A stretch of DNA of 64,000 bases, taken from assembly GCF_044324875.1 (NCBI RefSeq), contig NZ_CP172185.1. One strand, 5' to 3'. The notes under the pieces were generated by a model that worked only from the letters and a program-made list of their open reading frames with translations, made no database searches and had not been told where the DNA came from. The stretch comes from Escherichia coli. Lineage in GTDB: Bacteria > Pseudomonadota > Gammaproteobacteria > Enterobacterales > Enterobacteriaceae. Within the stretch, counting starts at the first letter, position 1. Every line of letters begins with the position of its first letter. This document shows, piece after piece, positions 10,195 through 58,900 of the stretch. A program made the position numbers and the translations under genes.

Positions 10195-10319
10195 ATCTTA
10201 ATATTTGATTATCCTTTGCGCGGCATGATGTCGCGCTTTTTTTATCTGTCGTTTAGTTACAACATACTCATGTGTGAGTGGCTTATTTCGCCGGATTTCA
10301 TTAAGAGCCATTAATATGT

Positions 10320-17300: not shown

Positions 17301-17430
17301 ACGGTACGGGGTGAGTTGTCGGATGCGCTTCGCTTATCCGAACAACAGGGAAGGATATTGTAGGTCCGGTAAACGCGGTGCCATTGGGCAGAATTAGCTC
17401 GGAGTAACAGGTTTTGAGTATTTACAGGAA

Positions 17431-17968
17431 GTGATGGTGGTTGGGGAAGGATTATTCAGCGCTGCGCGCTTCACCCTTCGGGTCGTTGCCTGCGGCAACG
17501 CTCTCTCGCTGGCGCTCGAGTCGAACCTTGGTCGAAGCTTCTCATCCTTCCCCGCTTGGGCAGAATATTTAATTACGGATTCGTTTGAGAGTTCAGGGAC
17601 TTTTGAAAGTGATGGTGGTGGGGGAAGGATTACTCAGCGCTGCGCGCTTCGCCCTTCGGGTCGTTGCCTGCGGCAACGCTCTCTCGCTGGCGCTCGAGTC
17701 GAGCCTTGGTCGAAGCTTCTCATCCTTCCCCGCTTGGGCAGAATATTTAATTACGGATTCGTTTGAGAGTTCAGGGACTTTTGAAAGTGATGGTGGTGGG
17801 GGAAGGATTACTCAGCGCTGCGCGCTTCGCCCTTCGGGTCGTTGCCTGCGGCAACGCTCTCTCGCTGGCGCTCGAGTCGAGCCTTGGTCGAAGCTTCTCA
17901 TCCTTCCCCGCTTGGGCAGAATATTTAATTACGGATTCGTTTGAGAGTTCAGGGACTTTTGAAAGTGA
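17431..17968 (-). repeat. Three tandem ~178-bp repeats of the tyrT operon distal region (rtT/tpr region)
   Basis: Units beginning at 17431, 17609 and 17786, each starting with a copy of the 3'-terminal ~19 nt of tRNA-Tyr; near-identical units. Confidence 0.9.
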
Positions 17969-18053
<85 letters not shown>

Positions 18054-18089
18054 ACGGGGTAATGCTTTTTACTGGCCTGCTCCCTTATC

Positions 18090-23957: not shown

Positions 23958-24575
23958 ATGGCACAGCTATATTTCTACTATTCCGCAATGAATGCGGGTA
24001 AGTCTACAGCATTGTTGCAATCTTCATACAATTACCAGGAACGCGGCATGCGCACTGTCGTATATACGGCAGAAATTGATGATCGCTTTGGTGCCGGGAA
24101 AGTCAGCTCGCGTATAGGTTTGTCATCGCCTGCAAAATTATTTAACCAAAATTCATCATTATTTGATGAGATTCGTGCGGAACATGAACAGCAGGCAATT
24201 CATTGCGTACTGGTTGATGAATGCCAGTTTTTAACCAGACAACAAGTATATGAATTATCGGAGGTTGTCGATCAACTCGATATACCCGTACTTTGTTATG
24301 GTTTACGTACCGATTTTCGAGGTGAGTTATTTATTGGCAGCCAATACTTACTGGCATGGTCCGACAAACTGGTTGAATTAAAAACCATCTGTTTTTGTGG
24401 CCGCAAAGCAAGCATGGTGCTGCGTCTTGATCAAGCAGGCAGACCTTATAACGAAGGTGAGCAGGTGGTTATTGGTGGTAATGAACGCTACGTTTCTGTA
24501 TGCCGTAAACACTATAAAGAAGCGTTAGAAGTCGGCTCATTAACGGCTATTCAGGAAAGGCATCGCCACGATTAA
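23958..24575 (+). CDS. tdk: Thymidine kinase
   Basis: 205-aa ORF with P-loop (NAGKST). Confidence 0.95.
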
Positions 24576-24784
24576 TAAGAATTTCTTTACTGACAGGGTG
24601 AGCAGGGCGCTTTTATCCTGTCAGTTCGTTTTACTCACTTCATCCGGTGTATATACCCTTCTCGACAGTTCTTTAACGCCACTATACCCCTCACAGAGCG
24701 CTTTTACAGTGACGTTGACTTGTGGACCTGTAAAGTACAATATCGCTGTGTGTAGGCGTTATACATCGCCGTAAATATGATGAA

Positions 24785-24793
24785 GGCAAATGC
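24785..24793. repeat. IS1 target-site duplication (left), GGCAAATGC
   Basis: Identical 9-mer directly flanks both IS1 ends. Confidence 0.85.
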
Positions 24794-24808
24794 GGTAATG
24801 ACTCCAAC

Positions 24809-25312
24809 TTATTGATAGTGTTTTATGTTCAGATAATGCCCGATGACTTTGTCATGCAGCTCCACCGATTTTGAGAACGACAGCGACTTCCGTCCCAGCC
24901 GTGCCAGGTGCTGCCTCAGATTCAGGTTATGCCGCTCAATTCGCTGCGTATATCGCTTGCTGATTACGTGCAGCTTTCCCTTCAGGCGGGATTCATACAG
25001 TGGCCAGCCATCCGTCATCCATATCACCACGTCAAAGGGTGACAGCAGGCTCATAAGACGCCCCAGCGTCGCCATAGTGCGTTCACCGAATACGTGCGCA
25101 ACAACCGTCTTCCGGAGCCTGTCATACGCGTAAAACAGCCAGCGCTGGCGCGATTTAGCCCCGACATAGCCCCACTGTTCGTCCATTTCCGCGCAGACGA
25201 TGACGTCACTGCCCGGCTGTATGCGCGAGGTTACCGACTGCGGCCTGAGTTTTTTAAGTGACGTAAAATCGTGTTGAGGCCAACGCCCATAATGCGGGCA
25301 GTTGCCCGGCAT
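24809..25312 (-). CDS. insB: IS1 transposase InsB frame
   Basis: 167-aa ORF; A6C slippery site near 25246-25255 for InsAB' frameshift fusion. Confidence 0.9.
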
Positions 25313-25506
25313 CCAACGCCATTCATGGCCATATCAATGATTTTCTGGTGCGTACCGGGTTGAGAAGCGGTGTAAGTGAACTGCAGTTGCCATGTTTTAC
25401 GGCAGTGAGAGCAGAGATAGCGCTGATGTCCGGCGGTGCTTTTGCCGTTACGCACCACCCCGTCAGTAGCTGAACAGGAGGGACAGCTGATAGAAACAGA
25501 AGCCAC
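25231..25506 (-). CDS. insA: IS1 InsA (transposition inhibitor / N-terminal transposase part)
   Basis: 91-aa ORF with zinc-finger Cys pairs. Confidence 0.9.
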
Positions 25507-25561
25507 TGGAGCACCTCAAAAACACCATCATACACTAAATCAGTAAGTTGGCAGCATCACC

Positions 25562-25570
25562 GGCAAATGC
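25562..25570. repeat. IS1 target-site duplication (right), GGCAAATGC
   Basis: Matches 24785-24793. Confidence 0.85.
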
Positions 25571-25655
25571 TGTCGGTTTATGGGAAAGTTGCTTTGGGTA
25601 AAACAAAAAAACGGCCCCAGAAGGGACCGTTTATGTTGCCAGACAGCGCTACTGA

Positions 25656-28331
25656 TTAAGCGGATTTCTTCGCTTTTTTCTCAGCTTTAGCCGGAGCGGC
25701 TTCCTTTTTCGCTGCAGTTTCACCTTCTACATAATCACGACCGTAGTAGGTATCCAGCAGAATCTGTTTCAGCTCGGAGATCAGCGGGTAACGCGGGTTA
25801 GCGCCGGTGCACTGGTCATCGAATGCATCTTCAGACAGTTTATCCACATTCGCCAGGAAGTCTGCTTCCTGAACGCCAGCTTCACGGATAGATTTCGGAA
25901 TACCCAGTTCAGCTTTCAGCGTTTCCAGCCATGCCAGCAGTTTCTCGATCTTAGCAGCAGTACGGTCGCCCGGTGCGCTCAGACCCAGGTGGTCAGCAAT
26001 TTCAGCATAACGACGGCGAGCTTGCGGACGGTCATACTGGCTGAATGCAGTCTGCTTGGTCGGGTTGTCGTTCGCGTTGTAGCGAATAACGTTACAAATC
26101 AGCAGGGCGTTTGCCAGACCGTGCGGAATATGGAACTGGGAACCCAGTTTGTGCGCCATTGAGTGACATACACCCAGGAAGGCGTTCGCAAACGCGATAC
26201 CCGCGATAGTTGCTGCACTGTGAACACGTTCACGCGCTACCGGATTTTTAGATCCTTCGTGGTAGGACGCTGGCAGATATTCTTTCAGCAGTTTCAGCGC
26301 CTGCAGAGCCTGACCATCAGAGAACTCAGATGCCAGTACAGAAACATAAGCTTCCATGGCGTGAGTTACTGCGTCCAGACCACCGAAAGCACACAGGGAC
26401 TTCGGCATGTCCATAACCAGGTTGGCATCGACAATCGCCATATCCGGGGTCAGCGCATAGTCTGCCAGCGGATATTTCTGACCAGTAGCGTCGTCAGTTA
26501 CAACCGCAAACGGAGTGACTTCAGAACCTGTACCAGAAGTGGTGGTGACAGCGATCATTTTCGCTTTCACGCCCATTTTCGGGAACTTGTAGATACGTTT
26601 ACGGATATCCATAAAGCGCAGCGCCAGTTCTTCGAAGTGAGTTTCCGGATGTTCGTACATGACCCACATGATCTTCGCGGCGTCCATCGGGGAACCACCA
26701 CCCAGCGCGATAATCACGTCTGGTTTAAAGGAGTTTGCCAGTTCTGCACCTTTACGAACGATGCTCAGGGTCGGGTCAGCTTCTACTTCGAAGAAGACTT
26801 CAGTTTCAACGCCTGCTGCTTTCAGTACGGAAGTGATCTGATCAGCATAACCATTGTTGAACAGGAAGCGGTCAGTCACGATGAGCGCACGTTTGTGGCC
26901 ATCAGTAATCACTTCATCCAGCGCGATTGGCAGGGAGCCACGGCGGAAGTAGATAGATTTCGGAAGTTTGTGCCACAACATGTTTTCAGCTCGCTTAGCA
27001 ACGGTTTTCTTGTTGATCAGGTGTTTCGGACCAACGTTTTCAGAGATGGAGTTACCACCCCAGGAACCACAACCCAGAGTCAGGGAAGGTGCGAGTTTGA
27101 AGTTATACAGGTCACCGATACCACCCTGAGAAGCCGGGGTGTTAATCAGGATACGAGCCGTTTTCATTTTCTGACCGAAGTAAGAAACGCGAGCCGGTTG
27201 GTTATCCTGGTCAGTGTACAGGCAAGAGGTATGACCGATACCGCCCATAGCAACCAGTTTCTCTGCTTTTTCTACCGCGTCTTCGAAATCTTTAGCGCGG
27301 TACATTGCCAGAGTAGGGGACAGTTTTTCATGTGCGAACGGTTCGCTTTCATCAACAACGGTCACTTCACCGATCAGAATCTTGGTGTTTTCTGGTACAG
27401 AGAAGCCTGCCAGTTCAGCAATTTTATAGGCTGGCTGACCAACGATAGCCGCGTTCAGCGCACCGTTTTTCAGGATAACGTCCTGAACAGCTTTCAGCTC
27501 TTTACCCTGCAACAGATAGCCGCCGTGGGTTGCGAAACGTTCACGTACTGCGTCATAAACAGAGTCAACAACAACAACAGACTGTTCAGAAGCACAGATT
27601 ACGCCGTTGTCGAAGGTTTTGGACATCAGCACAGATGCAACTGCACGTTTGATATCAGCAGTTTCATCGATAACAACAGGCGTGTTACCCGCGCCTACAC
27701 CGATAGCTGGTTTACCGGAGCTGTATGCGGCTTTAACCATGCCCGGACCACCAGTCGCGAGGATCAGGTTGATGTCTGGGTGGTGCATCAGTGCGTTAGA
27801 CAGTTCAACAGAAGGTTGATCGATCCAGCCGATCAGATCTTTCGGAGCACCGGCAGCGATAGCAGCCTGCAGAACGATATCAGCCGCTTTGTTGGTTGCA
27901 TCTTTTGCACGCGGGTGCGGGGAGAAGATAATGGCGTTACGGGTCTTCAGGCTGATCAGCGATTTGAAGATAGCAGTTGAAGTCGGGTTAGTGGTCGGAA
28001 CGATACCGCAAATAATACCGATTGGTTCAGCGATAGTGATGGTACCAAAAGTGTCGTCTTCAGACAGAACACCACAGGTTTTTTCATCTTTATAGGCGTT
28101 GTAGATATATTCAGAAGCAAAGTGGTTTTTGATCACTTTATCTTCGACGATACCCATGCCGGATTCGGCAACGGCCATTTTCGCGAGTGGGATTCGAGCA
28201 TCTGCAGCAGCCAGAGCGGCGGCGCGGAAGATTTTGTCTACTTGCTCTTGAGTGAAACTGGCATATTCACGCTGGGCTTTTTTTACACGCTCTACGAGTG
28301 CGTTAAGTTCAGCGACATTAGTAACAGCCAT
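25656..28331 (-). CDS. adhE: Bifunctional acetaldehyde-CoA / alcohol dehydrogenase
   Basis: 891-aa [23 protein letters not shown]. Confidence 0.97.
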
Positions 28332-29455: not shown

Positions 29456-30192
29456 TTCCTTTCAAATGAAACGGAGCTGTCATGCTCCGTTTACTTCGTC
29501 ATTATTTTTACTTTGTTCCGGTGCAGTTATCAAAAGCAAAGGGAATGGGTAAAAATATTCTTCTTGAATTACAGTTGGTTATAAGGATTTCCTTAACTGC
29601 TTCTCCTCACCATCATGTTATTTTCGCCACATCATAATCCTGGGCTTGCTGAAGAATAATTGAAATGATATTAGTTATTCCACTGCCTTTGGTAGAGGAA
29701 AGTGCTAAATAATAATCAATTGTTAAATTATTGTGCATTTCACTACTGGAACTGTAATCAGAAAAGATAGACATGCTTAACCAATCTCTATTTGATTGAA
29801 TTGAAAGATGTTTGTTAAGACATGGATGCAAGCTATAGATTCTGATACGGTCAATAAAAGAGAATTGCTTAACAATTTTGCAAAATGTATTGGCGAGTAA
29901 GAAGCGCATTTGGTACTTTCCGGGCAACCGCCAGACGATTCTTTATTGGTAATGAGAATAATTAACAATTAAAGAGCGTCGCGAAAGAATAATGTGTCTC
30001 GACAGGGGAGACACAGTACGAATCGACATAAGGTGATCGTCTGAATCACCAGAATAAATAAAGTCGGTGATAGTAATACGTAACGATAAAGTAACCTGAC
30101 AGCAGAAAGTCTCCGAGCCTGTGCAGGGTCCCAATCCGGGATTACACATGCTGGTTAATACCAGTAATTATAATGAGGGAGTCCAAAAAACA

Positions 30193-48805: not shown

Positions 48806-50401
48806 TTACCCTCGTGCCGCCAGTGCGGTGACTCTGTCGTAAGCGGAACCACTGCGCAGTACCTCAAGAACGGTTTGCGCATTGGCTTGCAGATCTTCAT
48901 GGCCATGCAGGCGCATTAACATGGCGACATTCGCCGCGACGGCTGCTTCATGGGCGGCGTCGCCTTTACCTTGTAACAAGCGTGTTAAAATGTCACGGTT
49001 TTCTTCCGGTGTTCCGCCTGCCAGTTGCTCCTGGTGGTAGGGGGTCAGGCCAAAATCTTCAGCGGTCAATTGATAGCTCTTAATTTCGCCGTCATGCAGT
49101 TCGGCAACGATTGTCGGCGCGTGTAATGAAACTTCATCCATCCCGCCGCTGTGCACCACTGCCGCGCGTTGATACCCCAGCACGCGCAAGGTTTCGGCAA
49201 TCGGTAGCACCAGTTCCGGACTATAAACACCAATTAACGCCAGCGGCGGATGCGCCGGGTTAATCAATGGCCCCAGCACATTGAACAGGGTGCGGGTTTT
49301 CAGTTGCTGGCGAACCGGCATCGCGTGGCGGAATCCGGTGTGATATTTCGGCGCAAAGAGGAAACATACGCCTAACTCATCCAGCGCCTGGCGCGATTTA
49401 TCGGCGTTCATATCAAGATTAATACCGAATGCCGCCAGCAGATCCGACGAGCCGGATTTACTGGAGACGCTGCGGTTACCGTGTTTCGCCACTTTCAGCC
49501 CACAGGCCGCGGCGACAAACGCACTGGCGGTAGAAATATTGATGCTGTTGCTGCCGTCACCGCCAGTACCGACGATATCAGCAAACAGATAATCCGGGCG
49601 CGGGAACGGCGCTGCGTTTTCCAGTAGCGCGGTTGCTGCCCCGGCGATCTCGTTCGGGTGCTCACCGCGAATTTTCATGCTCACCAGCGCCGCCGCCAGT
49701 TGTTCCGGCTTCAGCTCGCCACGCACCACCGCTGAAAACAGCTGGTGACTTTCTTGTTGGCTAAGCGTCTGCGCCTGATACAGTTTTTCCAGAATCGGTT
49801 GCAGCGTGTTAGTCGGTTCCAGTTTCTGCTGCGCCCAGGCCAATGTTTGTTCCAGCAGGCGAGCGCCCTGGGTAGTAAGAATGGATTCCGGATGGAACTG
49901 GAATCCACAAACGCGATCTGCATCGTGACGCACCGCCATCACCATGCCATTAAAATGGGCGTTGATGGTTAAACCGGCCGGAATGTTACTGCCAACCAGC
50001 GAGTGATAACGCGCCACTGGCAGCGGGTTTGTTAATCCGGCAAACATCGCCTGACCGTCATGTTCAATGCTGGAGGCTTTACCGTGAAGAATTTCGCCCG
50101 CCTGACCGACATACCCCCCATAAGCTTCGACAATCGCCTGATGACCGAGGCAAATGCCAATAATTGGCAGCTTGCCGCGCAGGCGGGTGAGGAGTTCCGG
50201 CATACAACCGGCTTCGCTTGGCACACCGGGGCCAGGAGAAAGCATCAGCACCGGATTGCTCATTGTCGCCAGGCGTTCAATTAAGGTCTGCGCCGGAATA
50301 TGGTTGCGGTAAATCACCACGTTATGACCATTGCTGCGCAACTGATCTGCCAGGTTGTAAGTAAAAGAGTCGATATTATCGAGCAGCAGAATGTCAGCCA
50401 T
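48806..50401 (-). CDS. trpD: Anthranilate synthase component II / anthranilate phosphoribosyltransferase
   Basis: 531-aa ORF. Confidence 0.97.
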
Positions 50402-56744: not shown

Positions 56745-56761
56745 TTTAAGATAAGTATAAA

Positions 56762-56788
56762 ATAAAGGCCCTGCGGGGCCTTTTCTTC
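56762..56788 (+). terminator. Terminator after rluB
   Basis: aaaggccc-tgcg-gggccttt hairpin plus TTTTCTTC. Confidence 0.7.
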
Positions 56789-56913
56789 ATTTGAAGCATG
56801 ATAAATAGTCGCAGTATTTTAATTTAATTTCATACTTGCTTATGAATAATACCCGGAAATAGCCACATTACTATTTAATTATCTGAGATAAACTCAACGT
56901 CAAGAGGTGGGTT

Positions 56914-57936
56914 ATGATTAGATATAGTGGAATATTTCTATCGCTGTTAATGCTTTCAGGTTGTGCAACTGAAGCATTGAAAAACGAACAAGCTGAAACT
57001 GTTATTACTGCGGGTAACAAAGCAGTAGCGGCGAATGCAAGTTTCTTTAAACAATACTATGCTTCTCGTGAAAACTTCCTTGTTAATTTTTATGCGACTA
57101 ATCCGGATTGTGCACCTCGACCAGATTATGAGGTAGTTATTGAAAACAGTACCAGTGATGAGTCATTATGTCAGCAACCTGGAGATAAGCACAAAAAATC
57201 TCAAGAAGATCTTTTTATTACAAAGATAGTCGCTACTGAAAAAGAAAGATTGCTGGCTTCTATGGAAATCATTAGCAGTATGAGTTCTTATGTCGAACTT
57301 TTGAATGAGGATTTAGATGTTAAAGACAGCAAACAGTTCATATTGCTTAAACAAGCTCTGGATCACGCGAATAATGCGGGGGCACTTCTGGGCATCAATG
57401 ATGGTGGAACATTAACAAAATCTGCAGCAGCGGTTAAAGATTTAGTGGTTTATTTCAATGGGTTGTATAATACAAGGGTAAGCGCAGGGAATATAGGTAG
57501 TACGGTAAATAATCATTGGCAAAGAATAAAAAATGATCTAACTGATATACGAAACGATATCGCGACAAAAGGTAAACAAACTGGAAGAAATACCTTTGCG
57601 ACGGTACATAATAATCTCGTTTATTACAATGCCTCCTTAAAAAAAGGAGGAGGTAATGAATTTAAGACATTGAAGAGCAGACAAGAATTCCTGGCTGCGA
57701 TTATCAGTATTAATGAAACACGTCTTCGTGCAGCAGATCCAGCTATTCCAGCAATACAAGCACTGAACTCATTTCTTGACGAGGGGAATCACCTTAAGGA
57801 TTTATACACTAATAAAATACGCACAGCGGCTGAACAAAAAAGGCTAAATGAAATATTACGCGCACAGGTCATTAGTGGGTTAAAGGCGTCTGAGGGGCTG
57901 GCAAAACTACTTATTGCCAGCGGAATAATGTTATAG
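56914..57936 (+). CDS. Predicted lipoprotein of unknown function (340 aa) in an AT-rich insertion
   Basis: ORF with AGAGGTGG RBS; signal peptide MIRYSGIFLSLLMLSGC with lipobox LSGC and Ala at +2; codon usage visibly AT-rich compared with neighbours. Confidence 0.75.
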   Translation: MIRYSGIFLSLLMLSGCATEALKNEQAETVITAGNKAVAANASFFKQYYASRENFLVNFYATNPDCAPRPDYEVVIENSTSDESLCQQPGDKHKKSQEDLFITKIVATEKERLLASMEIISSMSSYVELLNEDLDVKDSKQFILLKQALDHANNAGALLGINDGGTLTKSAAAVKDLVVYFNGLYNTRVSAGNIGSTVNNHWQRIKNDLTDIRNDIATKGKQTGRNTFATVHNNLVYYNASLKKGGGNEFKTLKSRQEFLAAIISINETRLRAADPAIPAIQALNSFLDEGNHLKDLYTNKIRTAAEQKRLNEILRAQVISGLKASEGLAKLLIASGIML

Positions 57937-57948
57937 GAGGGGCTTTTT

Positions 57949-58257
57949 ATGAACGATGTACAAAACCGTAGAATATTGGCATTACTTGATATGCTGTATA
58001 ATACTCTGGGCAACAAAACCACATGCAAGGTTTGTCATAAATATTTTATCCTTATCCTCACGGTGATGAACAATCTGACGATTAACTACGGTACTGAAAC
58101 TTCGCCAGAGTTAAGCGGAATCAGTTATGAAGATGCCAATGCGTTAATTACTGAACTGATATTATTTATTGAAGATGTTGACGCTGAGAATCATGAAGCA
58201 TATCCGGGACATTTGAATGAGATTAAACGGATTCTGAGTTTTGCTATTGCCGCTTGA
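57949..58257 (+). CDS. Hypothetical small protein (102 aa), partner of the lipoprotein
   Basis: ORF 12 bp downstream of the lipoprotein stop with AGGAGG RBS; no signal peptide; CKVCH motif. Confidence 0.65.
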   Translation: MNDVQNRRILALLDMLYNTLGNKTTCKVCHKYFILILTVMNNLTINYGTETSPELSGISYEDANALITELILFIEDVDAENHEAYPGHLNEIKRILSFAIAA

Positions 58258-58271
58258 ATATAATTATGATT

Positions 58272-58306
58272 AAAGCACCTCAAGAGGCGATCTTTTGAGG
58301 TGCTTT
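58272..58306. terminator. Hairpin between the insertion cassette and btuR (convergent)
   Basis: Perfect 12-bp inverted repeat aaagcacctcaa / ttgaggtgcttt with 11-nt loop. Confidence 0.5.
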
Positions 58307-58309
58307 CAC

Positions 58310-58900
58310 TTAATAATCAATCCCTATTTGCGCCTTAACACCGGCATCAAACGCATGTTTGATGGGGCGCAGCTCACTTACCGTATCCGCCAATTCAAGA
58401 ATATCCCGATGACAACCACGACCCGTGATAATCACCGTCTGTTGATGTGGACGTTCATTTAACGCCTGCACCACTTCTTCCAGTGGCAAATAGTCATACG
58501 CCACCATATACGTCAGTTCATCGAGCAAAACCATATCCAGTGAAGGATTGGCAAGCATCCGCTTTGCATGTTGCCAGACTTCGCGACAGGCGGCGGTATC
58601 AGACTCGCGGTTTTGTGTATCCCAGGTAAAGCCCGTTGCCATCACCTGAAATTCAACGCCGTGTGGTTCCAGCAGATTTCGTTCGCCATTAGGCCAGGTG
58701 CCTTTAATAAACTGCACGACGCCCACTTTTTTTCCGTGACCAACTGCGCGTGTTGCCGTACCAAATGCCGCGGTGGTTTTGCCTTTTCCATTGCCGGTAA
58801 AGACGATGATAATACCGCGTTCATCCTGGGCCTGGGCCACACGAGCATCGACTTTTTCTTTCACTCGCTGCTGACGCTGTTGGTAGCGTTCATCACTCAT
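58310..58900 (-). CDS. btuR: Cob(I)alamin adenosyltransferase
   Basis: 196-aa ORF with P-loop-like GNGKGKTTAAFG. Confidence 0.95.
   Translation of the reverse strand: MSDERYQQRQQRVKEKVDARVAQAQDERGIIIVFTGNGKGKTTAAFGTATRAVGHGKKVGVVQFIKGTWPNGERNLLEPHGVEFQVMATGFTWDTQNRESDTAACREVWQHAKRMLANPSLDMVLLDELTYMVAYDYLPLEEVVQALNERPHQQTVIITGRGCHRDILELADTVSELRPIKHAFDAGVKAQIGIDY

Follow-up and report, generated by a model that had tools for sequence, protein, structure and literature searches.

In this Escherichia coli genome, an insertion sequence of 768 bp separates tdk from adhE, two convergent genes. It occupies positions 24794-25561 of the window (i.e., the whole 64-kb stretch of DNA that was analyzed), carries its genes on the minus strand, and is of the IS1A type. 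Both neighboring genes are intact; the tdk stop codon ends at 24575, leaving 218 nt to the element, and the adhE stop codon (25656-25658) is separated from it by 94 nt. The features on which the following account is built are given in the order of their coordinates.

23958-24575, plus strand: tdk (thymidine kinase), intact, 205 aa; the homologue at the same position is annotated tdk in close relatives
24589-24632, plus strand: predicted intrinsic terminator of tdk (scan and folding), in which TCGTTTT follows a long hairpin (about 24589-24625)
24785-24793, no strand: left copy of the target-site duplication, GGCAAATGC, which the empty allele contains once
24794-25561, minus strand: IS1 element, IS1A type, with 765 of 768 bases equal to K-12 IS1A
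24794-24816, no strand: IRR, the right, tdk-proximal terminal inverted repeat, GGTAATGACTCCAACTTATTGAT
24809-25312, minus strand: insB open reading frame, 167 aa, DDE domain, open
25231-25506, minus strand: insA, 91 aa, zinc ribbon and HTH, repressor and N-terminal part of the transposase
25249-25257 (IS1 positions 305-313), minus strand: A6C (AAAAAAC) slippery site, TTAAAAAAC, in the insA/insB overlap
25527-25554, minus strand: sigma-70-like promoter match from a consensus scan (CTGCCA, 16 nt, TATGAT), partly within IRL and reading into insA
25539-25561, no strand: IRL, the left, adhE-proximal terminal inverted repeat, the reverse complement of GGTGATGCTGCCAACTTACTGAT
25562-25570, no strand: right copy of the target-site duplication, GGCAAATGC, a perfect match to the left copy
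25596-25632, minus strand: predicted intrinsic terminator of adhE (scan and folding), a hairpin at 25609-25632 with a T-run to about 25596
25656-28331, minus strand: adhE, intact, 891 aa

The length of the element, its terminal repeats, insA, the phase of insB, the A6C motif, and a duplication within the 8-9 bp range all place it in the IS1 family. The terminal inverted repeats (GGTGATGCTGCCAACTTACTGAT and GGTAATGACTCCAACTTATTGAT, about 23 bp each) are imperfect, the two ends agreeing at 18 of 23 positions. In a profile search, the insA product matched PF03811 (E 1.4e-19) and PF12759 (E 1.7e-28), and the IS1 protein covered PF03400 (DDE_Tnp_IS1) from end to end (profile positions 1-131 of 131, E 3.5e-78) and scored 245 bits, relative to a cut-off of 100, with NF033558, the NCBIfam equivalog for the IS1 family transposase. 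The insB frame lies in the -1 phase and overlaps insA; a conceptual -1 shift at the A6C site yields an uninterrupted InsAB' transposase of 232 aa (24809-25506, minus strand) that matches PF03811, PF12759, and PF03400 over its full length. The putative promoter at 25527-25554 falls at what is presumably the place where the IS1 promoter is described. The role of the A6C motif is programmed -1 frameshifting (PMC12428005). In such a scheme, the insA product would serve as the repressor of IS1, while a rare -1 ribosomal slip at A6C would join insA to insB and so give the InsAB' DDE transposase, which would act on both terminal repeats. Judging by its sequence, this copy should still be mobile. A composite, Tn9-like IS1 transposon was also considered and rejected, as the 64-kb window holds a single IS1 and no second, bracketing copy; the target duplication directly adjoins the one element on both sides, with no cargo between copies.

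Comparison with the IS1A element of K-12 (NC_000913 19796-20563) reveals very little divergence. The two elements, both of 768 bp, align without gaps over their full length and differ by 3 substitutions in 768 positions (262, 444, and 561), each of which falls on a third codon position; because the differences are confined to these positions, both ends of the window copy are those of K-12 IS1A. One of the three substitutions is non-synonymous: the InsA proteins are the same, whereas InsAB' has R130 here and S in K-12. The terminal repeats and the insA/A6C/insB order are likewise common to the window copy and to K-12 IS1A and IS1E, which are IS1 "consensus" elements, whereas the window copy sits at another chromosomal location, at which IS1 was seen in none of the compared genomes. 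Fully identical (100%) IS1 copies, annotated "IS1-like element IS1A family transposase," are found in several other E. coli chromosomes and plasmids, and near-full-length IS1 occurs in 4,950 of 5,426 complete E. coli genomes, at a median of 11 places per genome. In short, a well-known element has given rise here to a routine, strain-specific insertion polymorphism.

The two copies of GGCAAATGC that border the element are spaced 777 nt from start to start (768 + 9), and the only third occurrence of this 9-mer within the 64-kb window is at 50149; the probability that a given 9-mer recurs at the exact opposite edge is about 4^-9. An empty-site query, composed of both flanks joined with one copy of the 9-mer, was aligned to the uninterrupted allele of E. 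coli CFSAN018748, in which exactly one GGCAAATGC stands at the join: the left flank aligns through ...GAAGGCAAATGC and the right flank from GGCAAATGCTGTCGG... onward, with 100% identity. Given this single copy in the empty CFSAN018748 allele, the repeat is therefore a true target-site duplication, and a chance repeat is excluded by the low probability of recurrence together with the lone 9-mer of the uninterrupted allele. The duplication length of 9 bp falls inside the 8 or 9 bp known for IS1 (PMC12428005). Across the flanks that make up the 303-bp spacer, the window and the empty CFSAN018748 allele differ by a single one-base indel, which lies some 100 nt past the tdk terminator, and the IS1-filled tdk-adhE spacer measures 1.08 kb as compared with 303 bp when empty. 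A preliminary description of the locus, which had reported a complete 768-bp IS1 with both terminal repeats, intact insA and insB, and the A6C motif, is thus borne out by the anatomy at 24794-25561; the perfect 9-bp direct repeat that it listed is confirmed on both edges, with flanks that match on re-inspection, its claim of a genuine transposition agrees with the single 9-mer of the CFSAN018748 allele, and its distances of 218 bp from the tdk stop and 94 bp from the adhE stop are both correct.

The distribution of the insertion was assessed in 5,426 complete RefSeq E. coli genomes (Shigella presumably left out), using junction queries of 200 nt each (100 nt of flank and 100 nt of IS1) and a threshold of at least 80% query coverage. 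Among the matches listed, neither IS1 junction at this site was present in any of the 5,426 complete genomes, and an IS1 in the opposite orientation, represented by a synthetic left junction, was likewise found in 0 of 5,426 among the matches listed. The exact 41-nt junction AATATGATGAAGGCAAATGCGGTAATGACTCCAACTTATTG gave no match in GTDB species-representative genomes and none in JGI metagenome contigs. The reference comparison envisaged in the preliminary description found the contiguous site empty in 2,200 of the 5,426 genomes (best identity 99.7%, in CFSAN018748), such that the element is not fixed in relatives; about 3,200 of the 5,426 have no contiguous empty site, and most of these, K-12 included, contain an IS4-family element or an ISZ/insZ remnant elsewhere in the spacer. 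E. coli AF40 and MEW, which were picked for their exact match to the window across a 1.85-kb accessory stretch, have an empty spacer and are about 99% identical to the window over most of the region. A Tdk protein identical to that of the window is encoded in thousands of public assemblies; a look-up of this protein, in which 189 contigs were read, returned 10 distinct arrangements, with a spacer that is either empty (302 bp) or about 1.46 or 1.74 kb long. The longer spacers contain an IS4-family transposase or no called gene, and a 1.08-kb, IS1-filled spacer is found in none of the 10. In E. coli MEW, an IS481-family element splits yciE (locus L008 5078-7565), and an IS1 with 99.7% identity to the window copy adjoins ompW; the latter indicates that IS1 has been active at different places in genomes resembling the window here.

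Two other elements in the tdk-adhE spacer are instructive for comparison. K-12 MG1655 carries a 980-bp ISZ (the insZ pseudogene, b4573; comparison locus L001 2927-3906), and E. coli MRY15-117 carries an intact IS4 that encodes an IS4-family transposase (locus L003 3206-4672); no nucleotide similarity was found between the K-12 ISZ and the MRY15-117 IS4. These two elements nevertheless share an insertion point, the duplicated bases corresponding to window positions 25615-25626 at the center of the adhE terminator hairpin, which is 45-56 nt nearer to adhE than the adhE-proximal end of IS1. The possibility that IS1 occupies the same site as the K-12 ISZ was accordingly rejected, as ISZ and IS4 sit inside the adhE terminator hairpin, and the uncertainty that the preliminary description had expressed over the corresponding K-12 interval is settled by the 980-bp ISZ/insZ remnant at a different point. 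The window copy resembles the ISZ and IS4-family elements of many E. coli in being an insertion sequence in the same tdk-adhE spacer; unlike those widespread insertions, it is an unrelated element at another point and is unique among the compared genomes (among the matches listed), the window being an otherwise "empty" allele to which IS1 has been added. In all, no fewer than three different insertion sequences have struck the spacer, each independently. The adhE terminator stem-loop, for its part, has the look of an insertion hot spot for IS4-family elements.

At the scale of the whole window, which is collinear with K-12 positions 1,268,622-1,333,457 at about 97-98.6% identity, several further differences from K-12 were observed. 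A 1.5-kb insert between rluB and btuR/cobO (56745-58310), missing in K-12, contains two open reading frames on the plus strand, the first of 340 aa (56914-57936) with a lipoprotein-like N-terminus (...LSGC) and the second of 102 aa (57949-58257); of the 5,426 complete E. coli genomes, just 244 possess the insert, which is always annotated "hypothetical protein" and gave no Pfam or PADLOC matches for its open reading frames at E<=0.01. The IS5U copy found upstream of oppA in K-12 is absent at 29705-29708, where the alignment blocks overlap by 4 bp, consistent with a 4-bp IS5 target duplication that is in single copy here. Positions 1-1500 hold two ldr/rdl toxin-antitoxin units as compared with three in K-12, the RtT repeat array downstream of tyrT/tyrV (17400-18063) is arranged differently from that of K-12, and about 127 bp of K-12 (1279350-1279476), from the narK-narG intergenic region with its narS sRNA annotation, have no counterpart at 10195-10200.

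Taken as an account of origin, it is very probable that an IS1A-type element transposed into the 303-bp tdk-adhE spacer in the recent ancestry of this genome, with a 9-bp duplication and without harm to the neighbors. Specifically, an intact IS1 of the IS1A type would have jumped into the spacer between the convergent genes, and the transposition, in the lineage's recent ancestry, would have produced the usual 9-bp target duplication. As no filled site was found in the compared genomes, among the matches listed, the insertion is private to an unsampled lineage. A Shigella lineage may share it, although the presence of one lone IS in 64 collinear kb argues against a Shigella source, in view of the IS loads of Shigella genomes. 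It is probably recent, as had been proposed in the preliminary description: the absence of filled sites elsewhere (0 of 5,426, among the matches listed), the intact open reading frames, and the perfect duplication are consistent with this age, which is likely, short of proof. The insertion could nevertheless be old within the unsampled lineage, the complete genomes closest to the window being only about 99% identical in the region. Segment-wise variation in identity is typical of E. coli recombination, and the region is indeed mosaic, with an identity to the compared complete genomes that ranges by segment from 97.8% to 99.7%; on these grounds, IS1 may be imagined to have arrived as part of a longer stretch, acquired horizontally or by recombination, in which the site was already filled, the transposition itself having happened in another lineage. 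This course of events is improbable, however, in that no donor with a filled site was found among the 5,426 complete genomes (among the matches listed), the GTDB representatives, or the JGI metagenome contigs, and an imported segment would alter only the place of transposition and not the nature of the feature.

With respect to the neighboring genes, transposition into the spacer appears to have been benign. The 3' region of tdk folds with an MFE of -22.3 kcal/mol, and the predicted tdk terminator ends about 161 nt before IS1; the adhE terminator, which comprises a 10-bp stem with 6 G-C pairs followed by TTTTTTTGTTTT, is predicted to end about 34 nt before IRL. Both terminators are unchanged relative to the empty CFSAN018748 allele. 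A Rfam scan of 24300-25900 (E<=1) returned only two chance-level matches (E 0.64 and 0.78) that were far under the gathering scores, and disruption of a known RNA family in the spacer was rejected, there being no Rfam family at that location. IS1 thus lies between two predicted terminators and interrupts no gene, known RNA, or terminator, and promoter and 5' regions are untouched, since tdk and adhE are convergent. The preliminary description suggested a possible influence of the element on the termination or read-through of either gene, and this finds no support: both terminators are intact and lie between the stop codons and IS1, and the anatomy therefore offers no ground for anticipating an effect on termination. 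The insertion is most likely selectively neutral for its neighbors and probably harms neither tdk nor adhE.

Nevertheless, a useful change in the expression of neighboring genes, for which the insertion would have been retained, deserves consideration, be it through polarity or termination, through outward or antisense transcription, or through H-NS binding or topology near hns. Precedent of a kind comes from evolved MG1655 clones, in which IS elements (IS1 and IS3) inserted between the neighboring genes hns and tdk altered hns expression (PMC9948715), and the tdk-adhE spacer has itself been struck repeatedly by IS elements. The published hns result, however, belongs to the region upstream of hns, across tdk from the present insertion, and is inapplicable to the tdk-adhE site; this was the one relevant paper found in the literature on IS1 with adhE and tdk (PMC9948715). 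Moreover, the IS4-family and ISZ insertions that recur in the spacer lie elsewhere within it, the filled site is present in no other compared genome (among the matches listed) and gives no sign of parallel selection, the tdk and adhE intrinsic terminators precede the insertion unchanged, and the convergent arrangement spares promoters and 5' regions. Retention for such an effect is consequently very unlikely, and neutral transposition remains the preferred reading.

The orientation of the element raises a further point, namely that insA is co-directional with adhE and that IRL faces the adhE terminator. The gene adhE is highly expressed under fermentative conditions, and adhE transcription leaking past its terminator could modulate IS1 expression. 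Because insA reads as adhE does and IRL lies only about 34 nt past the terminator, modulation of IS1 expression by an adhE leak is more plausible than an effect of IS1 on adhE, and of the two it is the most plausible direction of influence. Transcription that enters IS1 from upstream host DNA increases insAB' transcription and transposition, and addition of a strong terminator upstream of IS1 reduces transposition (PMC12428005). For K-12 IS1A, which is downstream of rpsT, the rpsT terminator is expected to keep out incoming transcription (PMC12428005); the window copy similarly lies just past the terminator of a host gene that is transcribed towards the element, although the upstream gene here is adhE, whose terminator takes the shielding role. 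An analogous shielding by the adhE terminator should leave this IS1 copy largely insulated, and adhE read-through under fermentative conditions could, as a hypothesis, modestly raise IS1 activity. The stronger proposal that IS1 has been kept because it alters the 3' neighborhood of adhE, tdk, or hns, either by antisense or outward transcription or by coupling of the transposase to anaerobic adhE read-through, is given slightly less credence still than a useful change in neighboring gene expression; were such a coupling real, fermentation would increase IS1 mobility in the lineage. Least credible of all is an assembly artifact, i.e., an IS1 repeat that was wrongly placed during assembly: although most E. 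coli carry IS1 in several copies (the median being 11 places per genome) and repeats often cause misjoins, a misjoin would not repeat, perfectly and on both edges, the very 9 bp that the empty allele contains once, and both flanks run on collinearly past IS1.

Current understanding is unchallenged by this insertion, which amounts to one data point on IS1 activity and has small importance beyond strain typing. For the latter purpose, it offers a clean, apparently lineage-specific marker that is usable for lineage tracking by PCR or in silico. The tdk-adhE spacer evidently tolerates insertion sequences, three unrelated elements having been found there across E. coli. Finally, the locus provides a natural case of an IS1 just past the terminator of a co-directional host gene, an arrangement that has been suggested to tune transposition (PMC12428005).
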